Position numbers and translations under genes: made by a program. From the NCBI GenBank assembly GCA_963719035.1, contig CAVRAO010000012.1, forward strand, positions 32,001-96,000: 64,000 bases of DNA, read 5' to 3'. Shown one piece after another: positions 22,356 through 46,708 of the stretch. The notes below the pieces were generated by a model. The model saw nothing but the letters and a program-made list of their open reading frames with translations, did no database searches and was not told the origin of the DNA. The DNA is from Methanobacteriota archaeon. GTDB taxonomy: Archaea > Halobacteriota > Bog-38 > Methanoflorentales > Methanoflorentaceae. How positions within the stretch are numbered: the stretch's first letter is position 1; each line of letters starts with the position of its first letter.

Positions 22356-22379
22356 ATCAATATATGCAAATATGAATAT
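22356..22379. promoter_or_regulatory. Putative ArsR operator (24-bp palindrome) downstream of a TATA box
   Basis: ATCA ATATAT GCAA ATATGA ATAT preceded by ccacagcTATAAATA; identical core at 44078. Confidence 0.75.
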
Positions 22380-22462
22380 ATAAGGGCATTATAATGTAGG
22401 GCACATTGTCTGGAGGTAATGGGCTAGCCGATAATTGTTCACATATTTTCGAGGTAATCAGA

Positions 22463-23422
22463 ATGCCACGATCGGCCCAAAGGATGACATTGTTGCTGCT
22501 GTCTATCATTGCTGCATTGTTGCTCGTAAGTTCCACAATAATTAATACGTCGGCAACCACCATCGTCCAACTCCAGCCTAACACGGCTAATTCGGGTGAC
22601 AAGGTGTTAGTGTCAGCCAACATGGCGCGAAATGCAAGTACGGTCACGCTTTCGTATTACGCTGATTTAAACAAGAACGGCAAGGAAGACGACGGCAGCG
22701 CGTCGGTGAAAATAGCGAACGTCACTGATGGACGCGCAAACGATGCTGACAACTCTACCAATGGTTTCATACTTTTCTCGTGGCTAACTCCACAATTCGC
22801 CCCTGGGCAGTACTTCCTCAAAGTTGAAGATCCAAATGGACCGACAAGAACCACTGTTTTGACTGTACAGAATGCTCAGCTCAAGCTGATACCAACGATC
22901 TACGGGCCAAACATCAAGACGGACAAAGGACTGATTAAACCAGGAGACACTTTTTCTGTAAGTACGCAGGTGACTGGTAACTGCCGCCTTTGTCATACGA
23001 CAGATAATCCGACGACGCAAAACCCAGGCGTAGATGAACAAAAGGTCAAAAAGGCGTTTTCTGCCGATTTAAGTCAAATTACAGGGAGTCCAAGCGATAC
23101 TGCCGTTGCTCCCGATTATGTGCATCACCTTTTAATCCAATGGATGCCTCTTGCGAGCAAAACGCTTGCCGATAATAAGACTGTCAGTATCACCGTTACT
23201 GGCACTAATCCTGCTGGCAACTTAACAACACAATCGATAGCGTTCGCCGGCGTAAACAAAGCAGTCAATATACCACCAAAGTCAACAAACGAAGACAATC
23301 AGAGCAATACTGCTTCAGCACAATCAACTGGTTCGACAAGCAGCCCACTGCCTGGATTTGAAGCAGTGTTTGTCGTGTTAGGATTGACTTTTGTAGCTTA
23401 TTTGGTGAATAGAAGGCGATAG
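22463..23422 (+). CDS. Secreted surface protein with a CxxCH motif and PGF-CTERM anchor
   Basis: Signal peptide; CRLCH; C-terminal PGFEAVFVVLGLTFVAYLVNRRR; GAGGT RBS before ATG 22463. Confidence 0.85.
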   Translation: MPRSAQRMTLLLLSIIAALLLVSSTIINTSATTIVQLQPNTANSGDKVLVSANMARNASTVTLSYYADLNKNGKEDDGSASVKIANVTDGRANDADNSTNGFILFSWLTPQFAPGQYFLKVEDPNGPTRTTVLTVQNAQLKLIPTIYGPNIKTDKGLIKPGDTFSVSTQVTGNCRLCHTTDNPTTQNPGVDEQKVKKAFSADLSQITGSPSDTAVAPDYVHHLLIQWMPLASKTLADNKTVSITVTGTNPAGNLTTQSIAFAGVNKAVNIPPKSTNEDNQSNTASAQSTGSTSSPLPGFEAVFVVLGLTFVAYLVNRRR

Positions 23423-23424
23423 TT

Positions 23425-24011
23425 ATGCGAAAACATATTTCCACAGTAATCGTGGTCGGACTACTGCTTGTGGCGATGATCTTCGCTGCAGGGTGTACCT
23501 CCAGCGATAACTCACCTACTCCAAGCGTCCCTTCGGCGACAAGGGATCCAAAGTTCGTTCCAAAAAACATATCAGGATATCGTACCTCTCGGACCGCTCT
23601 GTGGGTATCTCGATACAGTACCCCTCTTCGTGGCAAGCGAAAAATGGTTCAGGCTACGAGATCGTTAGTTTTAACGTGAGTGGATCCCCCAGTATGTCGT
23701 TTACGATTTATACCCAGGACTTTTCAGGGACATCGACAACGCTTAACGACTTCTCGCAGAGTGCGCTGCCAACGAATTTGACTAACTTCAAGCTGCTCAA
23801 CTCCACCAATACCACGCTTTCGGGTTATCCTGCCAAGAAGCACGTATTTACATTCATGACTTTCGATAGTGCGACTGCACAAGGCATGCTTCAGCTCACT
23901 TTGGTTAACAGAACTGGTTATATGTTGCTGTATGTAGCGACGCAGGACGTTTACCCGAATTACCTGGGAATTGTGCAAAACATGACGCAGTCGTTTAACG
24001 CAGTCAAGTGA
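23425..24011 (+). CDS. PsbP/Mog1p-like lipoprotein, frameshift near 23588
   Basis: Lipobox AAGC in first ORF; ISIQYPSSW, TTLSGYPA, YMLLY...MTQSF in second; similar to 46709-47332. Confidence 0.75.
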
Positions 24012-24133
24012 CTAGGCCAAGGCACCAATCCCAACACTGTTTCCAAATCCGGCGGTTGACTTTTCGCAGTCTCTGCGCTATCTGGAAAAAAAACAGAAAA
24101 ACTACATTTATTCAGGAAAGAGAGGGATAACAA

Positions 24134-24664
24134 ATGTTCCTCAGTGACTATACCGTAAGGTTAGTTCTCTCAGACTGCAATCCTTCATCTCAAAAGGTGA
24201 ACGCCCTCGTGGATCTATCTGAGGACATTAGCGAGGTACTTCCCTATCTCAACACCGTTCTGAAAGGATTGCAGTATGATCAGGATGAGAAGTTCTTAAC
24301 CGTGAGGAAAGAAGGGCGCTTGATTACCTTCAGGTCAAAACAGATAGCAGTCGCTAAACTAGAGGATGAAAATGAAGCAAGGTCGGTCATGGAAGAATTG
24401 AAAGAGATTGTGAATGCGACTTACGCGAATAGAGATCATATCAAACCGACCTATAGTTCTAGACCGGCCCCCCGGCCTCTTGAGATCTTTAAACTCATGC
24501 CGGGAAATAACTGTAAAGAATGTGGGGAGCCAACCTGCATGACCTTCGCTTTAAAACTGGGTAATGACGAAGTGAAACTAAGCCAGTGTCCGTTGCTCTT
24601 CAAAAAAGAATTTGAAGTAAACCGTTCTATACTAAACGAGATCTTGCCCGACTTGGAAATATGA
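24134..24664 (+). CDS. Fe-S binding protein with CdhE/AcsC-type 4Fe-4S domain (COG4871-like)
   Basis: DISEVLPYLN N-domain; C-terminal PGNNCKECGEPTCMTFA...CPLL. Confidence 0.85.
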   Translation: MFLSDYTVRLVLSDCNPSSQKVNALVDLSEDISEVLPYLNTVLKGLQYDQDEKFLTVRKEGRLITFRSKQIAVAKLEDENEARSVMEELKEIVNATYANRDHIKPTYSSRPAPRPLEIFKLMPGNNCKECGEPTCMTFALKLGNDEVKLSQCPLLFKKEFEVNRSILNEILPDLEI

Positions 24665-24840: not shown

Positions 24841-25638
24841 CTAAATCTCCTTCCCCTTGTTCACCGCGCGTAACGTACCTCGTCGGCCCCACGTTACCTC
24901 GAAACCTCGCGCTGTCAACACGTCTGCAATTTTTGCACCATCTCGGGCATACTTGACGACGATGGCTCCGATCCGATCAAAAACGTTTTGCGGGGTATGC
25001 GTAAGGATGTCGAGTTCAGCGCCTTCACAATGCATTTTAAGAAAATCGATGCGGTCGAGCCCATTGGAACTGAAGACATCCGCGAGCGTGACAGATTCGA
25101 CGTCAATGGCGCTGACAAAACCCCGGCCGTTCGACGGATAGAACGTGTGTCCGTAACTCTTTTTCTCAGAAATCCACAGCCTCTTAATGCCGCGTGAATC
25201 ACTGACCGCTTGCCTGAGCGCTTTGACGTTGTTTAGCCCGTTAAGAGCTATGTTTTTCTGCAAAAGCCCAAAATTGCGAGGATCCGGTTCGTAACAGATT
25301 ACAGTGTCGCTTGACGTGGTCGCTTGTACGGTAAATACTCCTATGTGTGCCCCGATATCAACCACCGTTCCGTACACGGGCCATTGTGAGTATAGGTCGT
25401 TGCGAAGGATCTCGTTAAGGATTGACAAATCCCCCATTTTAGGACGGAGAACGTATTTTAAGCCATTTCGCGTGGTTATCAGTGTCCCACCGTCCATCGG
25501 TGCAGATGGAAAGAAACGGATGAATAGTGGTACGTACCAGTTTCTTACGAGTACGACTATTCCAATGAACGCGTTTATAAGCGCAGCTATTCCCTTGACG
25601 TAAGAGAACAAGCGTTTGACCGCCCCCACTAGCACCAC
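24841..25638 (-). CDS. FkbM family methyltransferase
   Basis: VVDIGAHIGVFT, YEPDPRN, IDFLKMHCEGAE. Confidence 0.9.
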   Translation of the reverse strand: MVLVGAVKRLFSYVKGIAALINAFIGIVVLVRNWYVPLFIRFFPSAPMDGGTLITTRNGLKYVLRPKMGDLSILNEILRNDLYSQWPVYGTVVDIGAHIGVFTVQATTSSDTVICYEPDPRNFGLLQKNIALNGLNNVKALRQAVSDSRGIKRLWISEKKSYGHTFYPSNGRGFVSAIDVESVTLADVFSSNGLDRIDFLKMHCEGAELDILTHTPQNVFDRIGAIVVKYARDGAKIADVLTARGFEVTWGRRGTLRAVNKGKEI

Positions 25639-25818
25639 CTCAATTGTGCAGACACACGATTAAACTCTCTCAAAACTAAATGCCGCAGCATTATCTTTCG
25701 GTTATTTTTTCGCGGTCATTTTGTCACCTATTGGGCGCGAAAGTTAGGGTCGGATCGTTAGTATATTAGATGGCATTTTCCAAAAATCCTCAAAAATCTA
25801 AGAGGCACGTCTGAATAT

Positions 25819-26442
25819 TCATATTACCGACTGCTTCCCTCTTAGTTTATCCAAAGCGATTAAGGCCGCCGTTTGAACAGGCAGTATGGTGTCGCTCTGC
25901 AACTCTTTTAACGGCTCCACTGCGCGTAAATCGCCAAGCTCTCCAAGTGACGTGGCCGCTGCTATTCGGACATCATAAACAGGATCACGCAATGCATCGA
26001 TGAGCGGGGGAACCCCTCTAATGTCGGACAACTTGCCAAGAGCTTCAACCGCCGCTCTTCGAACCTCCCATTCATCATCTGAGAGCACCTCGATGAGGGA
26101 TGGCACAGCCTGTCGTTCTCCGACCTTACCAAGGGCAACCGCAGCTATCGTGCGGATTTCTTCGTTTTTATTTCCAAGAACGTGTATGAGTGTGTTGACT
26201 GCTTTTTGATCGGCTATCTCGCCAAGCGCTTCTGCCGCTTTGACTCGGACAAACTCTCGTTCATCCCCCAGCGCTTTTGTAAGTGCTGGTACTGCTCGTT
26301 GCGCTCGAGCAACACCTAAAGCCCTTGCAGAAGCGGCACGCACGCGGTAATCGCGTTTGTATTGGAGGGCTCTTATAAGCCCAGCACTGTCTCCGTTTGC
26401 AGCTAGTTTTGCTATATTTGGTTTGAATAATGCTAGGACCAT
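25819..26442 (-). CDS. HEAT/PBS-lyase repeat protein
   Basis: Repeated VR..AA.ALG..GD..AV..LI..L units. Confidence 0.9.
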   Translation of the reverse strand: MVLALFKPNIAKLAANGDSAGLIRALQYKRDYRVRAASARALGVARAQRAVPALTKALGDEREFVRVKAAEALGEIADQKAVNTLIHVLGNKNEEIRTIAAVALGKVGERQAVPSLIEVLSDDEWEVRRAAVEALGKLSDIRGVPPLIDALRDPVYDVRIAAATSLGELGDLRAVEPLKELQSDTILPVQTAALIALDKLRGKQSVI

Positions 26443-26570
26443 TTTTTTTCTCAGGAACGATCCGATACGAGCCGATCGTCGAAGCGTGACAAATAATGAG
26501 GACTATAACGTCAGACGACACAATTGAAACCCGCAATATCAACGTGTCAAGAGGCTGTCAAGTCGCTCTA

Positions 26571-27941
26571 TTATCCTCTTCTCATAAGCATGTAAGTGGC
26601 TCCGGCGATCACTATTGGTACGCCGAGTCCTAACAACGAAAACTCTAGTATGGGCTGTGGTGGTGAGCTCGAAACGCTATCAGTTTGAGCTGCTCGGAAA
26701 GATAGCTCCAGCACTGAGTCGTTCCCTAGGGCATCTGACGCACTGGTTGTGCCGATTACCTGCTTAGAGGCTGTCACTTGAGTGGGCGTCGAAGTAGCCT
26801 TACTAATGGGGGCGATTTTTGTCGGTTGCGGCACTGCCTTCACCGTTGGCACTGCCTTCACCGTTGGCACTGCCTTCACCGTTGGCACTGCCTTCACCGT
26901 TGGCACTGCCTTCACCGTTGGCACTGCCTTCACCGTTGCCGTCGCCGTAGGGGTTGCCGTTGCCTTCACTGTGCTCACTGCCTTCACTGTGCTCACTGCC
27001 TTCACCGTTGGCACTGCCTTCACCGTTACCGTCGCTTTAGGCGTTACCGTCGCTTTAGGTGTCGGCGTTACTGCCTTCGATGCTGACGTTCCAGAAGACG
27101 CTGCTGTTGTGGCAGGATACGTCTTTTGCAGCTCGTTGACGATCTGCTCAAATCCCAGTTGTTTGTATAAAGCTAGGCCGTTGGAATTTATGCTGCACCA
27201 CACGTGAAAATGAGTGAAACCGACCCCATTAGAATAGGACCAGTCGAGCATTGACTTGTAACTCGGTGATCCCCCATTCTTCGAGTTGGTTAGTATCGGG
27301 TTGTGATCGACCCCTTTAGAACTCCCCCACACCCCGGCAAGGATTCCGTTCGTCTTACCTAACGCGGCTGATTCCTTTGCTCCCTGCTGGATGTACTGCC
27401 ACTCTGACGGATAAAAGCTCTCCCAGCTGTTCATCACCGTGCCTGACTGGAGGTGCATGTTCTTCCATAAGCCGCACTGGTCACAGTTGTAGTTAACGTA
27501 GCCCTTGAAGTACCGCGCGAGATAGTTGGCGTCACCTTCACGACCGCCTTCGGACGCGACGTATTCCCATCCCGCAGCTTTGAGTGATTGGAAATATGAG
27601 GCAAAGTTTTCGATTGGAACGCTCTTCTTCTTGCCCGCGTCCCAAATGGGGATTTCGATATCAATAATCCCCTTCATACCGAGCGATTTGATCTTTGCGA
27701 GCTCTTCCTTGTACGGCTTCTGATCACGAACGACAAGATGGACCGTGGAGAACCCGTGCGCTTTAAAGTAGTCAAGCGAGCCATCCCATATCATCGCTTG
27801 GCCACAGCCAACATGATATTCAATCGGGCGGGTTGCCGCAGCCGGTTTGGGCGCGACAGGGGCCGCTGTTGTCGGCGTCATTACAGCTGAAAAGATAAAT
27901 AACGAAAGAATGCTGCAAGTTGCTAGGGTCTTCTTTTTCAT
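26571..27941 (-). CDS. Surface protein: signal peptide, glycoside-hydrolase-like catalytic domain, KAVPTV repeat stalk, PEF-CTERM-like tail
   Basis: Aromatic-rich N-domain (SEGG, SWE), repeat linker, PILEFSLLGLGVPIVIAGATYMLMRRG; hydrolase function is inference. Confidence 0.75.
   Translation of the reverse strand: MKKKTLATCSILSLFIFSAVMTPTTAAPVAPKPAAATRPIEYHVGCGQAMIWDGSLDYFKAHGFSTVHLVVRDQKPYKEELAKIKSLGMKGIIDIEIPIWDAGKKKSVPIENFASYFQSLKAAGWEYVASEGGREGDANYLARYFKGYVNYNCDQCGLWKNMHLQSGTVMNSWESFYPSEWQYIQQGAKESAALGKTNGILAGVWGSSKGVDHNPILTNSKNGGSPSYKSMLDWSYSNGVGFTHFHVWCSINSNGLALYKQLGFEQIVNELQKTYPATTAASSGTSASKAVTPTPKATVTPKATVTVKAVPTVKAVSTVKAVSTVKATATPTATATVKAVPTVKAVPTVKAVPTVKAVPTVKAVPTVKAVPQPTKIAPISKATSTPTQVTASKQVIGTTSASDALGNDSVLELSFRAAQTDSVSSSPPQPILEFSLLGLGVPIVIAGATYMLMRRG
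26830..27076 (-). repeat. 18-bp tandem repeats encoding KAVPTV/KAVSTV
   Basis: ggcactgccttcaccgtt repeated perfectly six times at 26830-26937, with further degenerate copies. Confidence 0.92.
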
Positions 27942-28125
27942 TGCCTTTCAAGCCTCCGTTTGCTGTTTTGTTAGCTAAGCGTTCTTCCTATATTTTGGAT
28001 CGTGCAAAAGAAAACACGGTACGCTAATCAAAACATATGAAAACATAAAAATGTATCGATGTATAGGTATAGTACTAAAAGTCCTTCAGGAGTCGGCATT
28101 AAACATGCTTTTGTCGCGCTGCACT

Positions 28126-29391
28126 TCACTCATCTCGTCGCGGGGCCCATTTAAGAATGACGGTTATGGCTACGATTATGCCGACGATTATTACCAACGC
28201 CGGAATAGCCAGAGCACCAACTCCTCCAGCTAACGCGGATACGCTCTGCTCTGAGGCACTTACGTTCTCATTCCCTCGTCCGACACCCGATCCCGTTGCA
28301 GATGCAAGCTGAACTTTTTCGTATTGCCCTATAGGATGAACAAGCGGGTATCCGTCCCCTGTGGCTGAAGGGGTATCACCGATGCCGTTTCCGTCGCTAT
28401 CCACTCCTTTGTAGTCGGAGTAGTAATTGCCCACGTAGCTCGAATAGGTGCCGCCACTGTACGTATACGTGTACTTCTCGGTCGAGTTCACTAAGTTTCC
28501 TTTTGGGCTTGCAATTGCAACGGGGTTATTAATGAAGTCGTTAAGGTAGAATCGATTTCCCGACGAATAGCCACTATAAACAGCGAGTTTAGCGTTGCCT
28601 GAGAATGTATTAAAAGTAAAAGTGTTGTTATTTGAGTTATCACGGAGGCGAACGGCAAACTCCTCATTTGCATTAATGCTGTTGTTGCTTAGCACGTTAT
28701 TGGACGAGCTGAGCAAGGAGATACCGTAAACGTGGTTGTTGCTGAGGACGTTTTGCACTATGGCATTTGAATTTGACTCACGCATATAAATCCCGTCACC
28801 CAGCGCGTTGCCGTTCCCGCTTTCATGCGTGGCGACGTTGCCGGAAAAGGTATTCCCCGACGACCCATCGAGGTAAATGCCGTAGCCATTATTAGAGAGG
28901 TTGCTGGCGCTCACTTTGTTGTTGGCGGCATGCTCGATGAGCACTGCGTAGACGTTATCGTGCGCAATTATATCGGTCACACTGGACTGTGATGCACCCG
29001 AAAACTCCACGCCAGCGCGTCCGCCTGTAAGCGTGAGCCCTTCTACCAGTATGCCGCTTCCTGAGAGCAAAAATACGTCGTTTGATGGCACCGCCGCATT
29101 CACAATCGTTGTTGCCGCCCCAGCCGATGATTTAATGGTGAGTGATTTGTTTACAACTACGTTCTCGCTATACGTTCCCGGCGGAATGAGGACGGTGTCG
29201 CCTGGCTGAGCTGCATTTACTGCCGCTTGGATCGTGGTATACTGCCCCGTCCCAACGGTAAGCTCATTTGCACTTGCTTGTGTAACGAGCCCAAGGAAAA
29301 GCGAGAAAAGGAGAATGCTGGCAAGCACCCACGGGCGCGCACTCTTTTTTACGGCTGCGCGTTGCTGCGTTGAGGTGAACGTTAATTGCAT
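28126..29391 (-). CDS. Parallel beta-helix (NosD/pectin-lyase-like) surface protein with C-terminal TM anchor
   Basis: YTTIQAAVNAAQPGDTV..PGTYSENV, SNN repeats, GNYYSDY...DGNGIGDTP. Confidence 0.88.
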   Translation of the reverse strand: MQLTFTSTQQRAAVKKSARPWVLASILLFSLFLGLVTQASANELTVGTGQYTTIQAAVNAAQPGDTVLIPPGTYSENVVVNKSLTIKSSAGAATTIVNAAVPSNDVFLLSGSGILVEGLTLTGGRAGVEFSGASQSSVTDIIAHDNVYAVLIEHAANNKVSASNLSNNGYGIYLDGSSGNTFSGNVATHESGNGNALGDGIYMRESNSNAIVQNVLSNNHVYGISLLSSSNNVLSNNSINANEEFAVRLRDNSNNNTFTFNTFSGNAKLAVYSGYSSGNRFYLNDFINNPVAIASPKGNLVNSTEKYTYTYSGGTYSSYVGNYYSDYKGVDSDGNGIGDTPSATGDGYPLVHPIGQYEKVQLASATGSGVGRGNENVSASEQSVSALAGGVGALAIPALVIIVGIIVAITVILKWAPRRDE

Positions 29392-29423: not shown

Positions 29424-29447
29424 ATCAATATATAAAAATTTATTCAT
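29424..29447. promoter_or_regulatory. Putative ArsR operator (variant)
   Basis: ATCA ATATAT AAAA ATTTAT TCAT, about 30 bp upstream of the 29391 start. Confidence 0.55.
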
Positions 29448-29666
29448 ATGAATAGTCCTGCGGCATCGCAGCCTTTCTTGTACCTGATCTTATATGTAAT
29501 CATAACTACATATGAACAACCATAGATATATATGTAGGAGGTATTACTGCGTACCAAGCTGAACTCGGTGTGAAGCATGCCACGTACATCATATCGCTGC
29601 GCTGAAGCGCAGAATATAATGCATAGTACGGATACGAGCGGACCACGTGTCACAAGAGGGTACATA

Positions 29667-30857
29667 ATGGGCAATGCAAAGACGCCACCAGAACGTTCAC
29701 AACGTCTACTAGAACTTGACATACTTCGAGCATTTGCCATTTGCTTGATCGTGTTCTCTCATTTTCCGCCCCTCTCTACTATCTATATCGATTTATCAGC
29801 CCGGCTATGGTGTGCCACCTTTGGCTTGGCGCTTTTCCTGTTTCTCTCGGGGTTCAGTTTACACCGCAGCAACAGCATCACGAGCGCTGCCGATGTGCTA
29901 CCATTTTACAAAAAGCGCATCATAAGGATCTATCCACTCTACGTGCTGATCATTGCGGTTTATGTGCTGCTCCAAGTCTTGCCGCTTGGTACCCCATTCC
30001 TCGAGACCACGCTGACTTCTGGAGAAATCGCCGTGAACGTGATCGGGTTGCAGGCGCTCTTGAATACTCCCTCATACAATGCGCTCTGGTTTATTGGGTT
30101 AATTCTGACCTTTTACATGATCTACCCGGTAATGATGCTCGCATCCTCAGAAAAAGCCGTCAGGATTGTCATCTTTTCGTGCGCGGCGCTTGCGCTCTTT
30201 GCGTTCTTGAGAATAGCATTTGATATCGTCAACCTTCGCCTGATCTATTATTACGTTATATTTGTCGGCGGGATCCTTGCGAGTAAAGCGCTTTTGACCC
30301 ATGCACACCGATCACACTTCTCGACTCGGCGCAGCCGCATTGTATATATCGTTGGCGCGCTTTCCCTCTTGGGCATTGCGATGGCGTTTTATCAACAAAA
30401 CCTCGGAGAAACAGGGGAGCTTGTAAGCTTTTATGCCAATATGGCTAATTACGTGCCAAAGGCGCTGATCTCGTTTCTCTTTATTTCGTGCGCCCTTTGT
30501 GCTGCTCGGGTCGTGACTATGACGTTTAACAAGCGCTACTACGCCCTCTCACTCTTCATCTCGCTTCTCTCGTACAGCATCTACCTAGTTCATCCCTTGG
30601 TTCTCACCGCGTGCACACGAGCACAGCTCGTTGCTCCGCAACTGAGAGGAGCACAAACTGATGCGATACTCATTTTTATTGGCATCCCGGCGATAGTGTT
30701 AGCTTCATACGTCCTCCAGAAAGGCGTAAATATGCTCACTCTGAGCTTGTGGGTACGAAGAGTGAGTGAACACCTCCACGTGCGTGTACAAAAATCAGTG
30801 AACACTACAACAATCCTGAGACGTGAGCTTAGTATGAAAAAGGTGGATTCGAGATGA
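29667..30857 (+). CDS. Acyltransferase family 3 (OafA-like) membrane protein
   Basis: LDILRAFAI..IVFSH, FLFLSGF, FYKKRIIRIYPLY, LWFI, SYSIYLVH motifs. Confidence 0.88.
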   Translation: MGNAKTPPERSQRLLELDILRAFAICLIVFSHFPPLSTIYIDLSARLWCATFGLALFLFLSGFSLHRSNSITSAADVLPFYKKRIIRIYPLYVLIIAVYVLLQVLPLGTPFLETTLTSGEIAVNVIGLQALLNTPSYNALWFIGLILTFYMIYPVMMLASSEKAVRIVIFSCAALALFAFLRIAFDIVNLRLIYYYVIFVGGILASKALLTHAHRSHFSTRRSRIVYIVGALSLLGIAMAFYQQNLGETGELVSFYANMANYVPKALISFLFISCALCAARVVTMTFNKRYYALSLFISLLSYSIYLVHPLVLTACTRAQLVAPQLRGAQTDAILIFIGIPAIVLASYVLQKGVNMLTLSLWVRRVSEHLHVRVQKSVNTTTILRRELSMKKVDSR

Positions 30858-33144: not shown

Positions 33145-33262
33145 CGTTATCACGTCGTTTGTAAGCGCGAAGCGCTAAGAGGGACTGAAGCAATGAAACG
33201 AAGTCACCCTTGCTGCGCTTTGGAGTGACTGCCATCACGGTACACCGCTTTCACATCCTCGC

Positions 33263-36376: not shown

Positions 36377-36400
36377 ATTGATATATGTTAATATATTGAT
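36377..36400. promoter_or_regulatory. Putative ArsR operator
   Basis: ATTG ATATAT GTTA ATATAT TGAT. Confidence 0.65.
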
Positions 36401-37067: not shown

Positions 37068-37480
37068 AAGGAGAACGAAAATGACAGAAGAGAAGCAAAT
37101 GATTGTTGATGAAATCCTCACGATGATGGAAAAGGGGTTGGGGGAGGAGCCGAAGCCCATGGTGCTGATGTCAAAGCTTATCCCTGAGTGGATTCCGAGA
37201 CAAGCCCAGGAGAAGAAGTTCGTAATGGAGCAACTAAATCATATTCCATCCAAATACAAACATCTCATCATGATTGCTGCTTCGGCGGCCGTCGGTTGTC
37301 ATCTTTGTACCGAGACGTTCATCAAGATTGCCTGTCGCGCCGGCGTAACCAAAGAGGAAATCGCGGAGGCAATCCTTGCAACCCGGTTCGCCCTGGCCTC
37401 CACCACTTTTGCTACGGCGGTTGAGGGAATGGAATTTTTAACCTCCAAGGAGTGAGGGAAATGGACGAATAACGACACTA
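37068..37480 (+). repeat. 413-bp direct repeat, copy 1 (copy 2 at 42919-43331)
   Basis: Covers RBS, CMD gene and about 25 bp downstream; only difference noticed is 37163 T vs 43014 C. Confidence 0.92.
37081..37455 (+). CDS. Carboxymuconolactone decarboxylase/AhpD-like protein, copy 1
   Basis: KYKHLIMIAASAAVGCHLC...AGVTKEEIAEA motif. Confidence 0.88.
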   Translation: MTEEKQMIVDEILTMMEKGLGEEPKPMVLMSKLIPEWIPRQAQEKKFVMEQLNHIPSKYKHLIMIAASAAVGCHLCTETFIKIACRAGVTKEEIAEAILATRFALASTTFATAVEGMEFLTSKE

Positions 37481-37507
37481 AAAATTCAAAAAATTATGAG
37501 GTAACCT

Positions 37508-38494
37508 GTGGTTCCAGATATTTTACAAGAAGCTGTTAATTACCTAACATACGTGTTGATAGGGTTAGACCCTGCATCTCCGTTAGGCAGTGCAATCAAC
37601 TTCTTCATCTATGATACCATAAAAATTTTAATTTTATTAACGGTAATAATATTCGCTATAGCCTTCTTCAGAAGTTATATATCACCTCTAAAGGTTAGAA
37701 AAGCCTTAGGTAAAAGAAATGAGTATATTGGGAATGTGATAGCTGCTTTAATAGGCATTATCACACCTTTCTGTTCTTGCTCGGCAGTGCCGCTCTTCAT
37801 AGGATTCGTAGAATCAGGAGTGCCATTGGGAGTCACTTTTTCCTTTCTAATTGCTTCCCCTATGATAAATGAAATCGCCATTATCTTATTGTGGGGTTTG
37901 GTGGGATGGCAAATAACAGCCATATACATTATATCCGGTCTCTTCATTGCCATAATAGCCGGTATAATTATTGGGAAGCTTAAATTGGAAGGTGAGGTGG
38001 AGAGCTACGTTTATGAGATGATCGAAAAAATAAAAGCGGCGGAAGCATCAGGAATGACTCTGGAAGAGGATAAACAGACCTTAAAGGAACGTGCCCTCTC
38101 CTCAAGAGATTACACTAAAGACCTATTGAAAAGGATTACGCCTTACGTAATAATAGCAATTGGAATAGGTGCGATTATGCATGGATATATTCCCTCAGAT
38201 TTCCTTGTCACCTATGCTGGTGCAAATAATCCTCTAGCGGTACCCTTAGCAGTTTTGATAGGAGGACCTCTCTATTCAAATGCTGCAGGGATCATTCCAT
38301 TGGTTGCCGTCCTTATTGATAAGGGAATACCTCTTGGAACTGCTTTGGCATTTATGATGGCAGTAACTGCATTATCCCTGCCAGAAATGATTATACTCAG
38401 AAAAGTGTTGAAACCTAAACTCCTAGGAATTTTTGTCGCCACATTGGCAGTGTCTATAACCGCCGTAGGCTATTTATTCAACGCTATAACGTAA
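37508..38494 (+). CDS. arsP: ArsP/DUF318 permease (organoarsenical efflux)
   Basis: TPFCSCSAVP, FLIASPM, PLYSN, LSLPE motifs. Confidence 0.88.
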   Translation: MVPDILQEAVNYLTYVLIGLDPASPLGSAINFFIYDTIKILILLTVIIFAIAFFRSYISPLKVRKALGKRNEYIGNVIAALIGIITPFCSCSAVPLFIGFVESGVPLGVTFSFLIASPMINEIAIILLWGLVGWQITAIYIISGLFIAIIAGIIIGKLKLEGEVESYVYEMIEKIKAAEASGMTLEEDKQTLKERALSSRDYTKDLLKRITPYVIIAIGIGAIMHGYIPSDFLVTYAGANNPLAVPLAVLIGGPLYSNAAGIIPLVAVLIDKGIPLGTALAFMMAVTALSLPEMIILRKVLKPKLLGIFVATLAVSITAVGYLFNAIT

Positions 38495-38563
38495 AATAAC
38501 AGGATCTGTGTAAAATTCATTATTTTGAATATTAAATGTTGATATCAAGACAGAGGTGATTAT

Positions 38564-38803
38564 ATGAAAATAGCGGTATATGGACCGGGATGCGCAAACT
38601 GCCAAAATCTAGAAAAAAATGCTAAAGAAGCTGTCAAAGAAATTGGTATAGATGCTGAAATCACGAAAATTCAGGAAATTGACAAGATACTGGAATCCGG
38701 AATAATTGCAACTCCTGCATTAGCAATAGATGGAGAAATGAAATCCATGGGAAGGGTCCCGTCTGTGGAAGAAATAAAAAAATGGATTAAAGCTAAAATG
38801 TAA
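38564..38803 (+). CDS. Small redox-active disulfide protein (MTH895-type thioredoxin)
   Basis: GPGCANC...TPALAIDG...GRVPS. Confidence 0.9.
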   Translation: MKIAVYGPGCANCQNLEKNAKEAVKEIGIDAEITKIQEIDKILESGIIATPALAIDGEMKSMGRVPSVEEIKKWIKAKM

Positions 38804-39066
38804 AAAAAATCAAGAAAGAAATCCAAATTCTTTCAGCAGACCTTCTTTGAATCTTATAAGGCGATTTTCCAAACGTCTTTGTGCAAATTTATTACGCTTC
38901 AAATGCATCTCGGTGACCCTGATACTCCTTCTTTTTACATTCTTGGTTTCAGTGAAAATACTCGCACGACGGTAAATTGCGCTGTAACACAGTTGGTGAC
39001 AAACGCTGCGTCTTGCCACACGTCTCAACGATGCTGCAGCCCTAAAGCTTCGGAGGTGGTGACGAC

Positions 39067-39309
39067 GTGGATTTAGATGTGAATATTAAAGCTCACGACC
39101 TACTATGGCGACTTATGGATCCTGCGATTAAAAAGCGTTATACTGAAAGCTTTGGCGCAAGAAAGTCGCAGCTCGTTGACTCTGAGATGGCAAAACTTGT
39201 TAAATCCGGCCTCATCTTTGAAAAGGACAATCGATATGACCTTACCTCGAAGGGGCACTCAATCTATAACTTATTGACTAAACAGAAAGGCTGTTGTCAA
39301 CCTATGTAA
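39067..39309 (+). CDS. Small winged-helix protein with C-terminal CC
   Basis: GGAGGTG RBS; LVKSGLI...YDLTSKG wing; ends KGCCQPM. Confidence 0.65.
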   Translation: MDLDVNIKAHDLLWRLMDPAIKKRYTESFGARKSQLVDSEMAKLVKSGLIFEKDNRYDLTSKGHSIYNLLTKQKGCCQPM

Positions 39310-39424
39310 TCGTTAAGACGCAATTGCGGTTGCGAGCCATGAAAGGTATCGGGTCAGTGCGTTAGCAAGACGCTGTTGTTCATATCACGGGCTATTGAAA
39401 TGCGCGAAAGAAGAGGTTTCTTAC

Positions 39425-40513
39425 ATGGTTGAAAAACCCAAAGGACGGCTATCGTTCCTAAACGAATTCCTGACCCTCTGGATCTTTCTCGCGATGATTA
39501 TCGGCGTGACGATTGGGTACTTTTTCCCAGGCGTCCCAGGCGCGCTTAACCAACTATCCGTAGGCACGACCTCTATCCCCATCGCTATCGGGCTTATCGT
39601 AATGATGTACCCGCCCCTGGCGAAGGTACGCTATGAGGAGCTGGGAGCCGTCTTTCGGAACACGAAGGTCTTAGGCTTAGGGCTCGTGTTCAACTGGATC
39701 ATGGGACCGCTCGTGATGTTCGCGCTCGCCGTCATCTTTATGCGCAACTATCCTGAGTACTTCGTAGGACTCATTCTCATCGGCATTTCGCCGTGTATTG
39801 CCATGGTTATCATCTGGATCCACCTCGCTCGTGGCGACGGTGAGTACGCGGCGGCCTTGGTCGCCCTGAACTCAATTATGCAAGTTCTCTTTTACTCAGC
39901 GTATGCCTTCTTCCTCATCACGATCCTGCCACAGTGGCTTGGGATCACCCAAATAGCGACCGTGGTAAACGTGTCCATTGTCGAGATCGCGAAGACCGTG
40001 GCCATTTACCTCGGCATTCCGTTCGTTGCGGGGGTGATTACCCGATACGTGGGGTTGAAACTCAAAGGGCGGGAACGGTACGAAACGCGTTTCGTCCCTA
40101 GGATCGGACCAGTTTCGCTTATAGCGCTGTTGTACACTATAATCATAATGTTTTCTTTGAAGGGGAACCTCATTATATCGCTGCCACTTGACGTCGTGCG
40201 GATTGCCATCCCCTTGCTCGGCTACTTCATAGTGATGTTCTTCGTCCCCTTCTTTATCTGCTGGCGAGTAGGTCTCGATTATGCCAAAACGGCCACACTC
40301 GCGTTCACCGCGGGAAGCAACAACTTCGAGCTTGCCATAGCGGTAGCGGTCGGCGTCTTTGGCTTAAATTCCGGTCAAGCGTTTACTGCAGTGATCGGGC
40401 CGCTGATTGAAGTGCCCGTCTTAATCAGCCTGGTCAACGTAGCCCTATGGTTCTCCGCGAAGTATTTTACCTCTACCGGAGAGTCAACCGCGAAACGTTC
40501 TAAGCATAATTAG
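39425..40513 (+). CDS. acr3: Acr3 arsenite efflux transporter
   Basis: [48 protein letters not shown] motifs. Confidence 0.95.
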
Positions 40514-40558: not shown

Positions 40559-40582
40559 ATTAATATATGCAAATATGTTTAT
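40559..40582. promoter_or_regulatory. Putative ArsR operator downstream of a TATA box
   Basis: ccgcagcTATATATA followed by ATTA ATATAT GCAA ATATGT TTAT. Confidence 0.72.
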
Positions 40583-40611
40583 ATATAAAGGGGCGGTGCA
40601 AAACGACCACA

Positions 40612-41844
40612 ATGAAGGGCGTCACTGAACTTACACATAGTAAACCAATTATCGGACTCTCGATCGCGCTTATAATATTGTTGTGTAGCTCGGCCTTTAG
40701 CTCTGTGGTGGCGCAGACACCATCGCTTTCGAACACTACATCAAGCGCACAGAATCCTCCATGGCCAGTAAATTTATATGAGTTTTACAGAACCGACTGC
40801 CCGCATTGTCAAGCGATAGCGCCAACGATAGACGCGCTGGCACGTCAATACCCGACCCTTCACGTCTATAAGATTGAAACGCAAAATGACGCGAATTACA
40901 GCCTTTTCGTTCAGAAGTTCCTGCCAGCATATAATTTAACGATTGATTCTGTGCCGACCATATTCATCGGCAACAAGAAGTTCGTAGGCGGTGAGGAGTC
41001 AATGCCCGCACTGCAAGCAGAAGTTGCGAGGGCCGTTAAGGCTGGGGCAACGGGTCCAGGCGATAAGATAATGGGCAATGTCGTGCTGACCCCTGCACCT
41101 ATACCACGGACGAACAATACTACTCGTAACTCAACTGCGTCTGATGACGGGACAGACGTTCAAGGTGATTTTCCCCTCCCCCTCTTTATCACGACAGGGA
41201 TAATCAGCGGGCTGAATCCGTGTGTTTTTTCTGTGCTCATCTTCTTGATGGGGACGATCGCCCTAACTGGGTCGCGTGCGAGGGCCATCGCCATCGGGGT
41301 CGCATATATTGCGACCGTGTTTTTTGTATTCTTCCTTTCAGCACTAGCCGTCGTGCAGTTTGTCCGAATTATTGGCGCTTCGAATCTACAATTAACGAAG
41401 ACTTTGATTGGCGTTTTTCTCTTAATCGTCGGGATTGTGTCTATCAAGGACTTCTTTTGGTATAATCGCTGGTTTAGTTTCAAGATCCCGACGTTTACAA
41501 AACACAGCATCAGTACTCTCGGAAAAACCAGTTCATTTATTGCGATTATTGCGCTCGGTTTTATCGCTACGATTGCTGCTTTGCCGTGCACAATCGGTCC
41601 GTTTACGTACTTTTCAACGACATTCCTAACCAGTATGACTACGATGCAAAATTACCTCTACACGGCCCTCTTCTCATTTGCGTTTGTTATTCCAATGATC
41701 ATCGTCTTCGTTGCGATATTTGCGATTAAGGTGAGCACGGACAGGGCTGAAGAGTGGAGAATGAAATCAGCGCGATATATGCGGCTTATAGCCGGGCTTC
41801 TGATGGTATCATTTGGGCTCTTGCTGGTCTTCAGAGTGTTCTAA
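40612..41844 (+). CDS. Secreted thioredoxin/glutaredoxin domain fused to CcdA/DsbD transmembrane domain
   Basis: Signal peptide, CPHC, VP, then LNPC...LPCT TM domain. Confidence 0.85.
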   Translation: MKGVTELTHSKPIIGLSIALIILLCSSAFSSVVAQTPSLSNTTSSAQNPPWPVNLYEFYRTDCPHCQAIAPTIDALARQYPTLHVYKIETQNDANYSLFVQKFLPAYNLTIDSVPTIFIGNKKFVGGEESMPALQAEVARAVKAGATGPGDKIMGNVVLTPAPIPRTNNTTRNSTASDDGTDVQGDFPLPLFITTGIISGLNPCVFSVLIFLMGTIALTGSRARAIAIGVAYIATVFFVFFLSALAVVQFVRIIGASNLQLTKTLIGVFLLIVGIVSIKDFFWYNRWFSFKIPTFTKHSISTLGKTSSFIAIIALGFIATIAALPCTIGPFTYFSTTFLTSMTTMQNYLYTALFSFAFVIPMIIVFVAIFAIKVSTDRAEEWRMKSARYMRLIAGLLMVSFGLLLVFRVF

Positions 41845-42725: not shown

Positions 42726-42777
42726 AACCGTGTGTTGCTTTGTTCGAGAGTTTCGTCACTCCACAACTTTATTTTAT

Positions 42778-42801
42778 ATTGATATATGTAAATATGTCTA
42801 T
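42778..42801. promoter_or_regulatory. Putative ArsR operator
   Basis: ccacaacTTTATTTT followed by ATTG ATATAT GTAA ATATGT CTAT. Confidence 0.7.
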
Positions 42802-44077: not shown

Positions 44078-44101
44078 ATCAATATATGCAAATATGAATA
44101 T
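44078..44101. promoter_or_regulatory. Putative ArsR operator downstream of a TATA box
   Basis: ccacaagTATATATAAA followed by ATCA ATATAT GCAA ATATGA ATAT. Confidence 0.75.
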
Positions 44102-44136: not shown

Positions 44137-44394
44137 GTGGAAGTCAAGATTCTGGGAATGGGATGCGCAAGGTGCAACAGCCTTGAAAAGATGGTTCGCG
44201 ATGTGGTCGCCGAACAAGACATTGATGCCACAGTAAATAAGGTCACGCAACAGCGGGACATATTAGCATACCCTGTTTTGGCCGTTCCTGCTCTCGTCAT
44301 TAATGAAGAGGTCAAGGCGTTCGGTCGCCTGCCAAGCAAGAAAGAGATTGCCGATTGGCTTATTCAAGCACAGCAAACCCAAGTGAAACAATGA
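44137..44394 (+). CDS. Small redox-active disulfide protein (MTH895-type thioredoxin)
   Basis: VKILGMGCARC...VPALVIN...GRLPS; GTG start after GAGGGT. Confidence 0.88.
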   Translation: MEVKILGMGCARCNSLEKMVRDVVAEQDIDATVNKVTQQRDILAYPVLAVPALVINEEVKAFGRLPSKKEIADWLIQAQQTQVKQ

Positions 44395-44810
44395 ATGATA
44401 GTTTAAAAACGTTAGTAGCTTTAGCTTTGCTGAGCGTGCTCATAATAAGTGTGAGCGGCTGCACTGCTGAGACCTCAGGAAACACGCTGAGCTTCGTAGG
44501 AGGCACGTCGCACCCCTCTGACATAACCACTCTCTTGAAAAAAGGCCCTGTCTTGCTGTACTTCGGCGGTAACTGCACAAGCTGTGCGGAGCAGAAAGTG
44601 ATCATTTCAAACCTCGAGAAACAGTACAACGGGACTGAAGTAACGATACTGCGGATTGACCCATTAAAGGATACAACGCGCAAAGACGTGAATTATGGCG
44701 TGACGACCATCCCGGAAACTATTGTGGTACGGAGTGATGGCGCAGTTGCGAAAAGCGTTGGATTGACCGATGAGCAGACCCTGAAAAACACGATTGAGGC
44801 GGCACGGTAA
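44391..44810 (+). CDS. Thioredoxin-like lipoprotein
   Basis: Lipobox VSGC, PVLLYF...CTSC, IP; ATGA overlap with the upstream gene. Confidence 0.85.
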   Translation: MNDSLKTLVALALLSVLIISVSGCTAETSGNTLSFVGGTSHPSDITTLLKKGPVLLYFGGNCTSCAEQKVIISNLEKQYNGTEVTILRIDPLKDTTRKDVNYGVTTIPETIVVRSDGAVAKSVGLTDEQTLKNTIEAAR

Positions 44811-45466
44811 TGGAGATAAACCCTTTAATCGCTTTTGGAGCGGGACTTGTAAGCGTCTTCTCCCCATGCGTACTTATCGTTCTTCCAGCAGTCATGGCAT
44901 CATCGATAGACCGTGGGAGGTGGCGACCGCTCGCAATCGTACTGGGGCTTAGTATGTCGTTCACCGCTATGGGGTTGTTAGCGTCCGCATTCGGCTCAGC
45001 CTTTCAGAGCGTTAAAGGTTATCTGGACGTAATTGCCATCATCATCGTGATGTTCATTGGCGTGTGGATGTTGTTCAACTTGCACCTACCATATAACACT
45101 CCACGACTGGGGTTCGTCGATGCTGTCTCGAAACGATCGACTAAACTCTCGGGTGAAGGAATCGTCAGCGGTTTGTTGCTCGGGATGTCGCTTGGGATCG
45201 TCTGGTTACCGTGCACTGGTGCAGTGTTAGGCGCGATACTTACGTGGGTCGCAGCACGTGGTAATGTGCTCACAGGCGGGCTTCTTCTTCTGGTATACTC
45301 GCTCGGATTCGCTGTCCCGATGCTAGCCGTTGCGTATTCGACGAAGGTGTCATCAACTCTCGTTGCCAAGACTGCAAATACTATTTGGATAAAACGAGCT
45401 GCAGGATTGGTGCTTCTTATCGTTGGCGTCTACCTGATAAACCAGCGTTTTTTTCTGTTAGGCTGA
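44810..45466 (+). CDS. ccdA: CcdA/DsbD family thiol-disulfide transporter
   Basis: SPCVL and WLPCTG motifs, 6 TM. Confidence 0.9.
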   Translation: MEINPLIAFGAGLVSVFSPCVLIVLPAVMASSIDRGRWRPLAIVLGLSMSFTAMGLLASAFGSAFQSVKGYLDVIAIIIVMFIGVWMLFNLHLPYNTPRLGFVDAVSKRSTKLSGEGIVSGLLLGMSLGIVWLPCTGAVLGAILTWVAARGNVLTGGLLLLVYSLGFAVPMLAVAYSTKVSSTLVAKTANTIWIKRAAGLVLLIVGVYLINQRFFLLG

Positions 45467-45530
45467 GAAGGCTTGCTCGTCATACTGACGCAAGACGTAG
45501 TGGCACATTTTCTGGAGGTACAGAGTCAGC

Positions 45531-46379
45531 GTGAACGCTTATGACGCCTCCTACTATCCGAAAGATCAAGGAGAGCAATACAAGAGACAAGCTTTTCAAG
45601 CTGATCTCCTCAAGCTAACCGTCGCTGTCGTTGCAGAGTTGGTTATTTTTCTCCTCTGGTTTGATGGACCGGTGAGAGAGCGCTATGAAATCCTCGTCCA
45701 CATAGCGCTGCCCATATGCATCGTCCTGCCGATCTTAAATTATCGTTACCTGATCGTGGTGCCGTTCATAGCCTTCTTGCCCGACATGGCGCGAGTGTTT
45801 GATGTCGATATCTCACATTCCCTCGTTATTTTACCGCTCGTCTTCGTAGCAGCCTTCGTGCCTTTTGTGCGTCGCCCGAAGACTGCACTGATCGCAGGTT
45901 ATGCAGCCTTCGCTATCTGGGCAAGCCATCTTATTGTTGATGCACGTAAGTATGCGATTATTGAAAATTTTAGTGGCTATCCGTGGAGCGATCTAGTGTT
46001 TTATACACTCCTTTTAACCGTACTAGGCTTTTTGCTTGTGCAGGTCTTGCGTTTCGGCGATGCCCGTTTCAAGGGGGACGGCTACGGACCTAGAGACAGC
46101 AGTTTAAGCAATCGGACTCCGCTAAGCAGTCAGCCTCCGACAGATGTTCATCGCTTGGACGATACTATGTCGAGCGCTATCTCAAGGCCGCGGTTATCTA
46201 GAACGATAGAAGTGACTGCACCTGAAGGGACCTCTGAAAGATCCAGAGGTAATAAGGCGAGGGATCCTTCGAGTTCATCTGATCATAAGCTGCAATTCGA
46301 TTATGACGGGTTTGTTGTCGGGGATGTGACCTCAAAAAAGGCGCTGAGGAGCAAGATAAGGGGTAAGAAAGGCTCATAG
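45531..46379 (+). CDS. Membrane protein, possible metal-dependent hydrolase (YdjM-like)
   Basis: LPD, SHSL, SHLIVD motifs in TM context; disordered C-tail. Confidence 0.55.
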   Translation: MNAYDASYYPKDQGEQYKRQAFQADLLKLTVAVVAELVIFLLWFDGPVRERYEILVHIALPICIVLPILNYRYLIVVPFIAFLPDMARVFDVDISHSLVILPLVFVAAFVPFVRRPKTALIAGYAAFAIWASHLIVDARKYAIIENFSGYPWSDLVFYTLLLTVLGFLLVQVLRFGDARFKGDGYGPRDSSLSNRTPLSSQPPTDVHRLDDTMSSAISRPRLSRTIEVTAPEGTSERSRGNKARDPSSSSDHKLQFDYDGFVVGDVTSKKALRSKIRGKKGS

Positions 46380-46439
46380 ATGCTCTTTGTCGCGCAATCG
46401 CTTTTGATGCGCTACAAAATACATGAAGCTAAGCGAAAT

Positions 46440-46595
46440 ATCAACGGCATCCAGCGTCAGAAGCCCCGTGAGCATTCTGATCGTTGTCGTTTTTCCGGCG
46501 CCGTTTGGACCGAGAAACCCGAAAAGATCAGAATCAGGAATGCTAGCTGTTATCGACGGTGTGATGGTGCCGAATCGTTTTTTAAATCCTTAACG
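46440..46595 (-). pseudogene. Remnant of ABC ATPase 5' end (paralog of 30854)
   Basis: Minus strand DLFGFLGPNGAGKTTTIRMLTGLLTLDA, isolated and truncated. Confidence 0.8.
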
Positions 46596-46684
46596 CGATT
46601 ACTGCGTTATTTTCAAGTTTAATTTCTTATCACGATTTTAAAGGCGCGTCGAGTTGAACAAAGCAAATCCACAGCTATATATCT

Positions 46685-46708
46685 ATCAATATATGCAAAT
46701 ATCTATAT
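46685..46708. promoter_or_regulatory. Putative ArsR operator abutting a leaderless start codon
   Basis: ccacagcTATATAT followed by ATCA ATATAT GCAA ATATCT ATAT, then ATG at 46709. Confidence 0.75.

Follow-up and report, generated by a model that had tools for sequence, protein, structure and literature searches.

A 24-bp palindrome as predicted operator of an ArsR-type repressor at about ten promoters of an archaeal arsenic/thiol-redox island

In a 64-kb stretch of archaeal DNA (C12:32001-96000 of a 2.19-Mb assembly in 13 contigs, hereafter the window), a 24-bp palindrome was found to recur ahead of gene starts throughout an arsenic/thiol-redox island. We propose that this element is probably the operator of the ArsR repressor encoded in the same island, a protein of the As(III)-responsive type, and that about ten archaeal promoters are co-controlled through it. 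We infer the identity of the binding protein, its repressing action, As(III) as its effector and the transcription start positions from sequence. The host, whose genome carries several genes for TATA-binding proteins (TBPs) together with mcrA, is an uncultured, mcrA-bearing archaeon of the Halobacteriota. At least three full two-domain TBP genes are encoded, all on contigs other than C12 and accompanied by fragmentary matches on C11, and the promoters are therefore taken to be of TATA type.

The AT-rich element follows the consensus ATYRATATAT-N4-ATATATYRAT, with ATYRATATAT as half-site and a 4-bp spacer. A preliminary description of this DNA had listed ten strong copies and one weak copy ahead of gene starts, with none elsewhere in the window. 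A search for ATNNATATATNNNNATATRTNNAT at up to two mismatches returned 23 strand matches at 12 start positions, all within 22356-46708, whereas dinucleotide-preserving shuffles of the window averaged 0.04 matches and never gave more than 2. Three of the 12 start positions (40567, 42786 and 46677) are 8-nt register shifts of neighbouring sites. All ten strong sites proved real: nine fit the pattern at this threshold, and the exception, 35822, has three flank mismatches and an exact 16-bp core, ATATAT-GATC-ATATAT, within a 20-bp perfect palindrome. Using a symmetric position weight matrix (PWM), the training sites scored 27.7-36.4 bits, except 35822 at 21.1, and the best score at non-island genome positions was 22.2 bits. 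When each site was left out of the matrix in turn, nine of the ten exceeded the best of 2,129,332 background bases. The described absence from the remainder of the window was borne out, as nothing above 8 bits was found outside 22356-46708. The weak copy (28037..28060), before the gene for a 456-aa secreted protein, did not fare as well: it misses the pattern at two mismatches and its PWM score of 16.5 is matched by non-island positions, so that it is doubtful and not separable from background.

The preliminary description had raised the concern that such a matrix might simply recognise AT-rich promoter context throughout the genome. The motif was instead found to be confined to the island and to contig C5, a 36-kb redundant copy of C12:42447-78425 (window 10447-46425) that is 99.4% identical to it and differs by 164 mismatches and 44 gap openings. 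Beyond these two, only five AT-rich places matched at up to two mismatches, each with two: C2:782795, C4:28248 (identical in sequence to the former), C6:128521, C12:2465 and C12:27868-27878. A generic promoter feature was consequently rejected: the motif is found neither in the remainder of the genome nor upstream of 13 paralogues of island genes. With C5 set aside, the exact 16-bp core ATATAT-N4-ATAT[AG]T occurs at seven places in the genome, six in the island and one beyond the window at C12:100571-100586; this last match has neither the flanking bases nor an arsenic gene nearby and was treated as chance. Replication-origin boxes and a mobile-element repeat were rejected on position, since each promoter has a single copy and this lies 0-130 nt ahead of a start codon. 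Of the ten strong sites, nine are fully intergenic (the island intergenic fraction being 0.18), while 36999 runs over the final 33 nt of the preceding open reading frame (ORF).

Two promoter types could be distinguished. The cassette sites (22356, 40559, 42778, 44078 and 46685) begin 2-3 bp after a CC(A/G)CA-NN-TATA element, in agreement with the five copies described earlier, so that the dyad follows the TATA-like element directly. We read CCACA-NN-TATA as a putative TFB-recognition element and TATA box (BRE/TATA), represented in the first cassette by CCACAGCTATAAATA on the plus strand at 22339..22353. The TATA-like elements ahead of the other four cassette sites are CCGCAGCTATATATA (40542-40556), CCACAACTTTATTTT (42761-42775), CCACAAGTATATATA (44061-44075) and CCACAGCTATATATC (46669-46683), in the order of the sites. 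The palindromic sites (29424, 35468, 35822, 36377 and 36999) have halves that are themselves TATA-like. Promoters 22356 and 46685 have about 130 nt of upstream sequence in common, and 44078 shares about 35 nt of it; whole promoter-operator cassettes have therefore been duplicated. Site 46685 ends exactly at the ATG (0 nt), which fits a leaderless mRNA.

The arsR gene (35878..36254, plus strand) encodes an ArsR/SmtB repressor of 125 aa when intact. It starts 32 nt past the predicted arsR-proximal operator (35822..35845), whose core ATATATATGATCATATATAT is the 20-bp perfect palindrome, and carries the ELCVCEL motif; the motif and the presence of a palindrome in front agree with the earlier description. 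The protein matched NCBIfam NF033788 at 91.5 bits (cut-off 55), and Pfam HTH_5 was found on the window fragment. Its closest solved structure is CadC (3f72, E 1.9e-12), in which ELCVCEL aligns to ELCVCD; SmtB and CzrA structures also match. ELCVCEL is invariant in 16/16 aligned homologues, and the recognition helix is invariant or nearly so. The island protein also has about 40 extra residues at its N-terminus. Within the window, arsR is linked to genes for ACR3, an ArsC-type low-molecular-weight phosphatase, an ArsP_1 permease and ArsM, and in relatives to arsD-arsA.

The window copy of arsR is split by a 1-nt gap near 35947. The gene is intact in C5 (125 aa), and contigs of three public runs (X1, X2 and X8) carry an extra G after 35947; the frameshift repair that had been thought necessary before any binding assay thus falls away. 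In the same comparison of public-run contigs (no reads) with the window, further indels of 1-2 nt were found at 21282 (arsM), 23587 (lipoprotein), 29662, 32142/32148 (ABC-2 permease) and 33289, 33702 and 34106 (acetyl-CoA synthase), the window being 1 nt short at 23587 relative to contigs from four public runs. C12 and C5 each hold private frameshifts. Because of these private frameshifts and the indels in the public-run contigs, several apparently broken genes of the window are probably assembly consensus errors. None of the public runs found for this locus is recorded as RNA.

Comparative analyses support ArsR as the binding protein. ArsR orthologues (59-98% identity) were found in 7/23 other genomes of the family, five of 17 in the genus and two of six in its sister genus. 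Zero-mismatch matches to ATYRATATATNNNNATATRTNNAT were present in 7/7 genomes with an orthologue and in 0/16 without; these genomes are kin and the counts are not independent. Among the 16 without an orthologue, one-mismatch matches were seen only in G013, G017, G019, G021 and G022, and the other eleven had none. In every orthologous locus examined, from genomes and metagenomes alike, sites flank arsR, and the arsR-proximal palindrome scores below 19 bits in five of these loci (L036, L058, L059, L067 and L069). When nine arsR upstream regions were aligned, a 17-18-nt core, A-TATATATGA-CATATAT, was invariant down to 62% ArsR identity while the flanks diverged. More distant homologues with the Cys-Val-Cys pair (CVC; 38-49% identity) in other lineages are preceded by similar AT palindromes of 25.8-29.1 bits, before arsM-arsR (L018 and L024) or arsR (L073), and a homologue of 39% identity in L022 has a 27.8-bit palindrome before ACR3-arsR. 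These four loci lack the gene for an 80-aa winged-helix-like protein (HTH80) that accompanies arsR elsewhere, which argues that ArsR itself reads this class of dyad.

Two further ArsR proteins were noticed. A metagenome variant (73% identity, L069:308-769) has Ser-Val-Cys in place of Cys-Val-Cys, together with a shorter proximal palindrome and no site at or above 19 bits. The host genome also encodes a second ArsR/SmtB paralogue (38% identity; C6:128513-130810), with a 660-aa gene after it. Just upstream of this paralogue stands a palindrome of another kind, TATATGAATA-GA-TATTCATATA, and the same type precedes its homologues in relatives.

To define membership across related islands, each gene in 22 loci was traced back through the genes ahead of it on the same strand as far as a site scoring 19 bits or more (L068, a near-duplicate of L067, was omitted). 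Genes for the DUF2703-like protein were linked to a site in 12/12 loci, those for a secreted thioredoxin (TrxS) in 8/8, CcdA in 8/9, ArsP in 7/7 and the 176-aa iron-sulfur (FeS) protein FeS176 in 7/8. The same was found in five of five loci each for the lipoprotein, the AhpD-like CMD protein, the thioredoxin Trx3b and acetyl-CoA synthase (ACS), the window being counted twice for ACS. Links were also seen for the NosD-like protein (4/5), the acyltransferase (3/3), the thioredoxin-CcdA fusion (3/3) and ArsC (3/8). The preliminary description had proposed one As- or metal-sensing ArsR governing far more units than a classical ars operon. This broad outline stands on the PWM scans of the genome and its relatives, the co-occurrence, the upstream footprint and the recurrence of units across islands, while several of its details have been corrected.

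The mechanism that we envisage involves a homodimeric winged-helix repressor with a Cys-Val-Cys site that would also regulate its own gene. About ten promoters within an accessory arsenic/thiol-redox island of about 25 kb would carry one operator each. In the cassette type, the operator would extend from 2-3 bp past CCACA-NN-TATA to the expected transcription start, whereas in the other type (arsR, ACS/HEAT, DUF2703-like and CMD-ArsP) the AT-rich halves would double as TATA box. Bound ArsR would block recruitment of TBP/TFB or of RNA polymerase; since the promoters are of archaeal type, as the TBP genes indicate, this would amount to occlusion of the TATA box or transcription start site and not of bacterial -35/-10 elements. 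Arsenite on the Cys pair would release ArsR and turn on all units together, the induced set comprising arsR, the ArsP-type permease, ACR3, arsenate reductase, the ABC transporter, the envelope proteins and the ACS paralogue with its HEAT protein. The AhpD-like, thioredoxin and CcdA modules would carry reducing power across the membrane.

Several observations weigh against this assignment or narrow it. The arsR-proximal site lacks the flanking ATYR/YRAT, and its leave-one-out score of 13.3 is equalled or exceeded at 26 background positions. CCACA-NN-TATA is rare genome-wide (13 matches, four of them in the island), and for this reason BRE/TATA is kept as a provisional label. Sites and arsR are physically linked, and their co-occurrence therefore shows one island, not which protein binds. 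Site linkage was low for some genes, namely arsR (16/21), the 110-aa HEAT-repeat protein HEAT110 (9/14), ACR3 (3/14) and HTH80 (2/13). The low arsR count is due to proximal palindromes that score below 19 bits, and those of ACR3 and HTH80 are partly an artefact because in relatives both follow a site-bearing but unlabelled arsD-arsA operon; the chain walk is crude in that it misses weak proximal sites and unlabelled arsD/arsA, and its loci are related and not independent. No site was found at any of five arsM copies examined across the loci, and methylation thus seems to lie outside the regulon. The CVC pair provides the only cysteines of the island ArsR, which has no N-terminal Cys, and some orthologues possess an extra N-terminal Cys that is absent here. 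The R773 ArsR has a third Cys where the island protein has two only. Given the two cysteines and the additional one in some orthologues, the range of effectors is uncertain. Lastly, HTH80 is conserved in the islands, either between arsA and ACR3 or, in G018 of the sister genus, right after arsR.

The question of effector bears on a first alternative, which we consider quite unlikely: ArsR would bind the palindrome, but the signal that it senses would be a wider kind of thiol-reactive or redox stress (from Sb, Cd, Hg or reactive species of sulfur or oxygen), with the thioredoxin, CcdA and AhpD-like proteins as the primary output. More than half of the units do encode thiol-redox or envelope proteins, and CadC, which senses Cd/Pb/Zn, is the nearest relative of solved structure. 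According to the available part of a review (PMC11672702), members of the ArsR family also detect reactive sulfur and oxygen species, and its persulfide sensors use an alpha2/alpha5 Cys pair; the motif of the island ArsR is an alpha3 Cys-Val-Cys and not such a pair. The N-terminal Cys of the CadC site is likewise missing, and the units hold ACR3, ArsC and the ArsP-type permease, with arsD-arsA in relatives.

A second alternative, very unlikely in our estimate, assigns the palindrome to HTH80 (39067-39309, plus strand), binding alone or with ArsR. Besides its conservation, the AlphaFold model of this protein (pLDDT 82) shows a helix-helix-helix-hairpin-helix arrangement, and its weak Foldseek matches are all winged-helix DNA binders (best E 0.09). 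None of these matches is significant, as Foldseek returned nothing at E ≤0.001, and the protein is winged-helix-like by topology alone; Pfam HTH_45 matched below cut-off (E 6e-4), no NCBIfam match was obtained, and an atlas search with the protein gave no usable match. The distant CVC-ArsR loci have similar palindromes before their ars operons without HTH80, locus L034 combines six sites and arsR with no HTH80 orthologue within 10 kb, and in most loci the HTH80 gene does not adjoin the invariant arsR-proximal site. A C-terminal Cys-Cys-Gln-Pro was found in 10/11 aligned orthologues (Cys-Arg-Lys-Pro in L067). HTH80 could be a co-regulator or a metalloid chaperone.

That the element is merely the promoter class of one TBP/TFB paralogue, or a duplicated strong promoter, with no repressor and with palindromes that serve as bidirectional TATA boxes, is most improbable. 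In its favour, the halves are TATA-like, at least three full TBP genes exist, and 35-130 nt of upstream sequence is common to three of the five cassette promoters, as duplication of whole promoters would leave them. Against it, the spacing of 4 bp is conserved, as are the ATYR/YRAT flanks, 24-bp dyads are typical of dimeric winged-helix repressors, the dyad follows a separate TATA-like element in five promoters, and the motif is absent (at zero mismatches) from 16/16 family genomes without an arsR orthologue, with the TBP genes lying on other contigs.

With ArsR retained as the probable binding protein, the island can be read unit by unit. The first predicted operator, of cassette type (22356..22379; one mismatch, PWM 31.4, leave-one-out 29.0 against a background maximum of 22.8), lies 83 nt before the ATG at 22463. 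Behind it, a plus-strand transcription unit (22463..24664) encodes a secreted surface protein (22463-23422), whose translation contains one CxxCH and ends in an anchor of PGF type, a PsbP_2-like lipoprotein (23425-24011; weak match to Pfam PF18933) and the 176-aa FeS-domain protein (24134-24664; Pfam PF04060).

The operator predicted at 29424..29447 (one mismatch; leave-one-out 25.9 against 22.5) stands between divergent genes, 32 nt from the start of the NosD-like gene on the minus strand and 129 nt from that of the acyltransferase on the plus strand, and orthologous sites were found in L064, L066 and L063. On the minus strand, Pfam matches and translations define a chain of four genes (24841..29391), in the same order in L064: a NosD-like beta-helix protein (28126-29391), the 456-aa secreted protein (26571-27941), a HEAT protein (25819-26442) and an FkbM methyltransferase (24841-25638). 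This chain may be co-transcribed as one unit from site 29424. On the plus strand, Pfam identified an Acyltransferase_3 protein, an ABC ATPase and an ABC-2 permease (29577..32548); the permease is intact (253 aa) in C5, and in L034 the ABC genes lie directly behind a 36-bit site.

The next predicted operator (35468..35491; no mismatch, leave-one-out 29.4) is divergent from arsR, 48 nt from the ACS ATG, and is kept in all close orthologous loci. It precedes the minus-strand unit (32821..35419) formed by the stand-alone ACS paralogue (about 33230-35419) and, after it, HEAT110 (32821-33153). Downstream of arsR, a predicted operator at 36377..36400 (no mismatch; leave-one-out 33.8) precedes the plus-strand gene of a DUF2703-like Cys-rich protein (36513..37031), which matched Pfam PF10865 at E 1.5e-4 in the window and 3.4e-7 for the L064 copy.

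The predicted operator at 36999..37022 (two mismatches; leave-one-out 21.9 against a background maximum of 21.3), with orthologous sites in L030, L031, L032, L060, L063 and L064, precedes the CMD-ArsP-thioredoxin genes. These belong to a plus-strand run (37081..40513), assigned by Pfam, of an AhpD-like CMD protein (37081-37455), an ArsP-type permease (ArsP_1, 37508-38494) and a Thioredoxin_3 protein (38564-38803), followed by HTH80, an assignment made from its model, and by the ACR3 arsenite efflux pump (39395-40513; TIGR00832 acr3, 432 bits). In the PWM scan of the window, ACR3 had no site of its own above 8 bits. In related islands (L033:10642-12815, L058:10911-12758 and others), arsD and a 615-aa arsA lie behind an operator and before HTH80 and ACR3; the window island has no arsDA.

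The remaining predicted operators are of cassette type and precede plus-strand genes. That at 40559..40582 (no mismatch; leave-one-out 33.8; orthologous sites in L064 and L032) is followed by the gene of a secreted thioredoxin fused to a DsbD/CcdA-like membrane domain (40612..41844; Pfam PF00085 and a weak NCBIfam DsbD match). That at 42778..42801 (no mismatch; leave-one-out 33.1) precedes a second CMD copy (42932-43306; Pfam PF02627) and a thioredoxin-type arsenate reductase ArsC (43408-43944; Pfam PF01451, and TIGR02691 at E 2.7e-28, below cut-off). The two CMD genes lie in a 413-bp duplication (99.5-99.8% identical; 37068-37480 and 42919-43331) whose copies stand behind different operator-bearing promoters. 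Between two island units, a 119-aa ORF (42366-42725, minus strand) has a relative of 73% nucleotide identity beside another arsC copy on C2; it has no family match, and we take it from its sequence to be possibly a primase or mobile-element remnant. The operator at 44078..44101 (one mismatch; leave-one-out 27.4) precedes an operon, supported by Pfam and by synteny in relatives, for a Thioredoxin_3 protein, a secreted thioredoxin, CcdA/DsbD_TM and a 282-aa membrane protein (44137..46379). The last (46685..46708; one mismatch, leave-one-out 28.8) abuts the ATG of a 207-aa lipoprotein gene (46709..47332), a paralogue of that at 23425-24011 according to its translation. Elsewhere in the window, two arsM copies (20939-21801, minus strand, and 6690-7517, plus strand) and a second arsC (10460-10900) are all without an operator.

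The preliminary description had placed acetyl-CoA synthase in the regulon. The gene is indeed site-linked; it is a stand-alone paralogue and not part of the cell's CODH/ACS (carbon monoxide dehydrogenase and acetyl-CoA synthase). The gene shows the three domains and the A-cluster cysteines of bacterial-type AcsB: its product aligns to residues 18-449 and 452-580 of Moorella ACS, including the CxxC...C...C block, with SCGCFEC in a third frame. The broken frame coincides with the indels of the public-run contigs at 34106, 33702 and 33289, and the interruptions are most likely assembly indels. Intact island-type ACS genes of three domains lie behind a 34-bit site in L064 (725 aa) and L065 (727 aa), and CODH_A_N, CdhC and ACS_CODH_B_C were identified in unbroken orthologues of 724 aa. 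A dead pseudogene was considered, and is weakened by these intact orthologues and by the indels in independent contigs that remove the breaks. The paralogue corresponds to the ACS half only (84% nucleotide and 90% amino acid identity) of a fused 1400-aa CODH-ACS gene on C2, the housekeeping copy, which has no site. This fused gene (L079:5185-9387, minus strand) encodes a Prismane domain (52-620) and ACS (708-1397) and is followed by two genes for CdhD-type corrinoid iron-sulfur proteins (CFeSP). A fusion of CODH to a bacterial-type ACS is unusual for an mcrA-bearing archaeon, and the same long frame (1344-1418 aa) occurs in relatives. Where relatives lack the island ACS, the HEAT and FeS-domain genes follow the promoter that here precedes ACS.

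Paralogues of many island genes were found elsewhere at 70-91% nucleotide identity, namely those of the surface protein, the lipoproteins, FkbM, the secreted protein, the ABC transporter, ACS, the thioredoxin-CcdA fusion, ArsC and the membrane protein. In each case the similarity ends at the coding boundary, and within 300 nt upstream of 13 such paralogues no operator was detected (best PWM score 2.6 bits). Operator-free copies include that of the thioredoxin-CcdA fusion on C8 (80% nucleotide identity) and those of the lipoproteins on C2 and C6 (80-84%). We propose, as a point new to this work, that the regulon grew by the placing of housekeeping-gene paralogues behind the cassette, the originals remaining operator-free elsewhere. 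A bolder reading, which we regard as unlikely, would make the island an arsenite-switched 'second set' of cell functions, assembled from paralogues of housekeeping genes behind a portable cassette: envelope lipoproteins and surface proteins, a thioredoxin-CcdA line for exporting reductant, an ABC transporter, and the stand-alone ACS with its HEAT and FeS-domain partners. In its boldest form, the ACS/HEAT/FeS module would have a direct role with arsenic, replacing or protecting the As-sensitive Ni-Fe-S acetyl-CoA machinery of a methanogen or taking part in methyl transfer on arsenic. Our search of open-access papers and preprints found no link between ACS and ars genes.

Compared with known systems, the island ArsR resembles the classical ArsR of E. 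coli (R773 and chromosomal) in its ArsR/SmtB winged helix, in ELCVC(D/E)L in helix 3, in the imperfect dyad before its own gene and in its link to efflux and arsenate reductase. It differs in its archaeal TATA promoters, in its two cysteines and its N-terminal extension of about 40 residues, and in the predicted operators, of which there are about ten, spread over separate units, where the classical system has one. Its predicted targets also reach further, to an ACS paralogue, envelope proteins and CcdA/thioredoxin modules. The CadC protein encoded by Staphylococcus aureus pI258 (PDB 3f72 and 1u2w), in which N-terminal cysteines and the CVC pair bind Cd/Pb/Zn, shares the aligned ELCVC, whereas the island ArsR has no N-terminal Cys and an arsenic gene context. 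MDR1, Phr, LrpA and similar archaeal repressors occupy the TATA box or the DNA just past it, a position that the predicted operators here would share (overlapping or directly after the TATA-like element and reaching the expected start), but they belong to other families or answer to other signals.

Control of more than one promoter by a single ArsR is already known, as are ArsR repressors with dyad operators. As far as the available parts of two reports go, TtSmtB of Thermus thermophilus acts on several separate arsenic-resistance promoters (PMC5658604, PMC8649762); it is bacterial, with far fewer targets and with genes scattered over the chromosome instead of one island. Control of more than one promoter is likewise indicated, in the portion of the literature at hand, for Pseudomonas ArsR1/2. 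From the accessible part of a further study (PMC7438021), ArsR-like regulators adjoin arsenic genes and hgcAB, which encodes a corrinoid protein related to CODH/ACS subunits; the two cases are alike in combining a Wood-Ljungdahl-related protein with arsenic genes, and, so far as that part describes the hgcAB loci, the island differs in its ACS paralogue, its PF04060 FeS protein and an ArsR with canonical CVC. Our literature search, which covered open-access papers and preprints, found no account of an archaeal operator bound by an ArsR of arsenic type. What appears new is the archaeal promoter setting, the number of operators per island, growth by cassette plus paralogue, and the fact that genes for CcdA/thioredoxin, envelope and ACS/HEAT/FeS proteins are conserved members. 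Overall, the sequence evidence points to what is very probably an unusually large but otherwise conventional arsenic regulon.

The locus combines a defined 24-bp predicted operator with some ten natural targets and a promoter-operator cassette of compact form, and it could serve as a metalloid-inducible switch in methanogen genetics. Through the conserved position of the stand-alone ACS paralogue, the HEAT protein and the FeS protein (PF04060) behind this predicted operator, arsenic stress would be tied to acetyl-CoA metabolism in a methanogen lineage of soils and sediments, and the locus as a whole illustrates how a regulon can grow.

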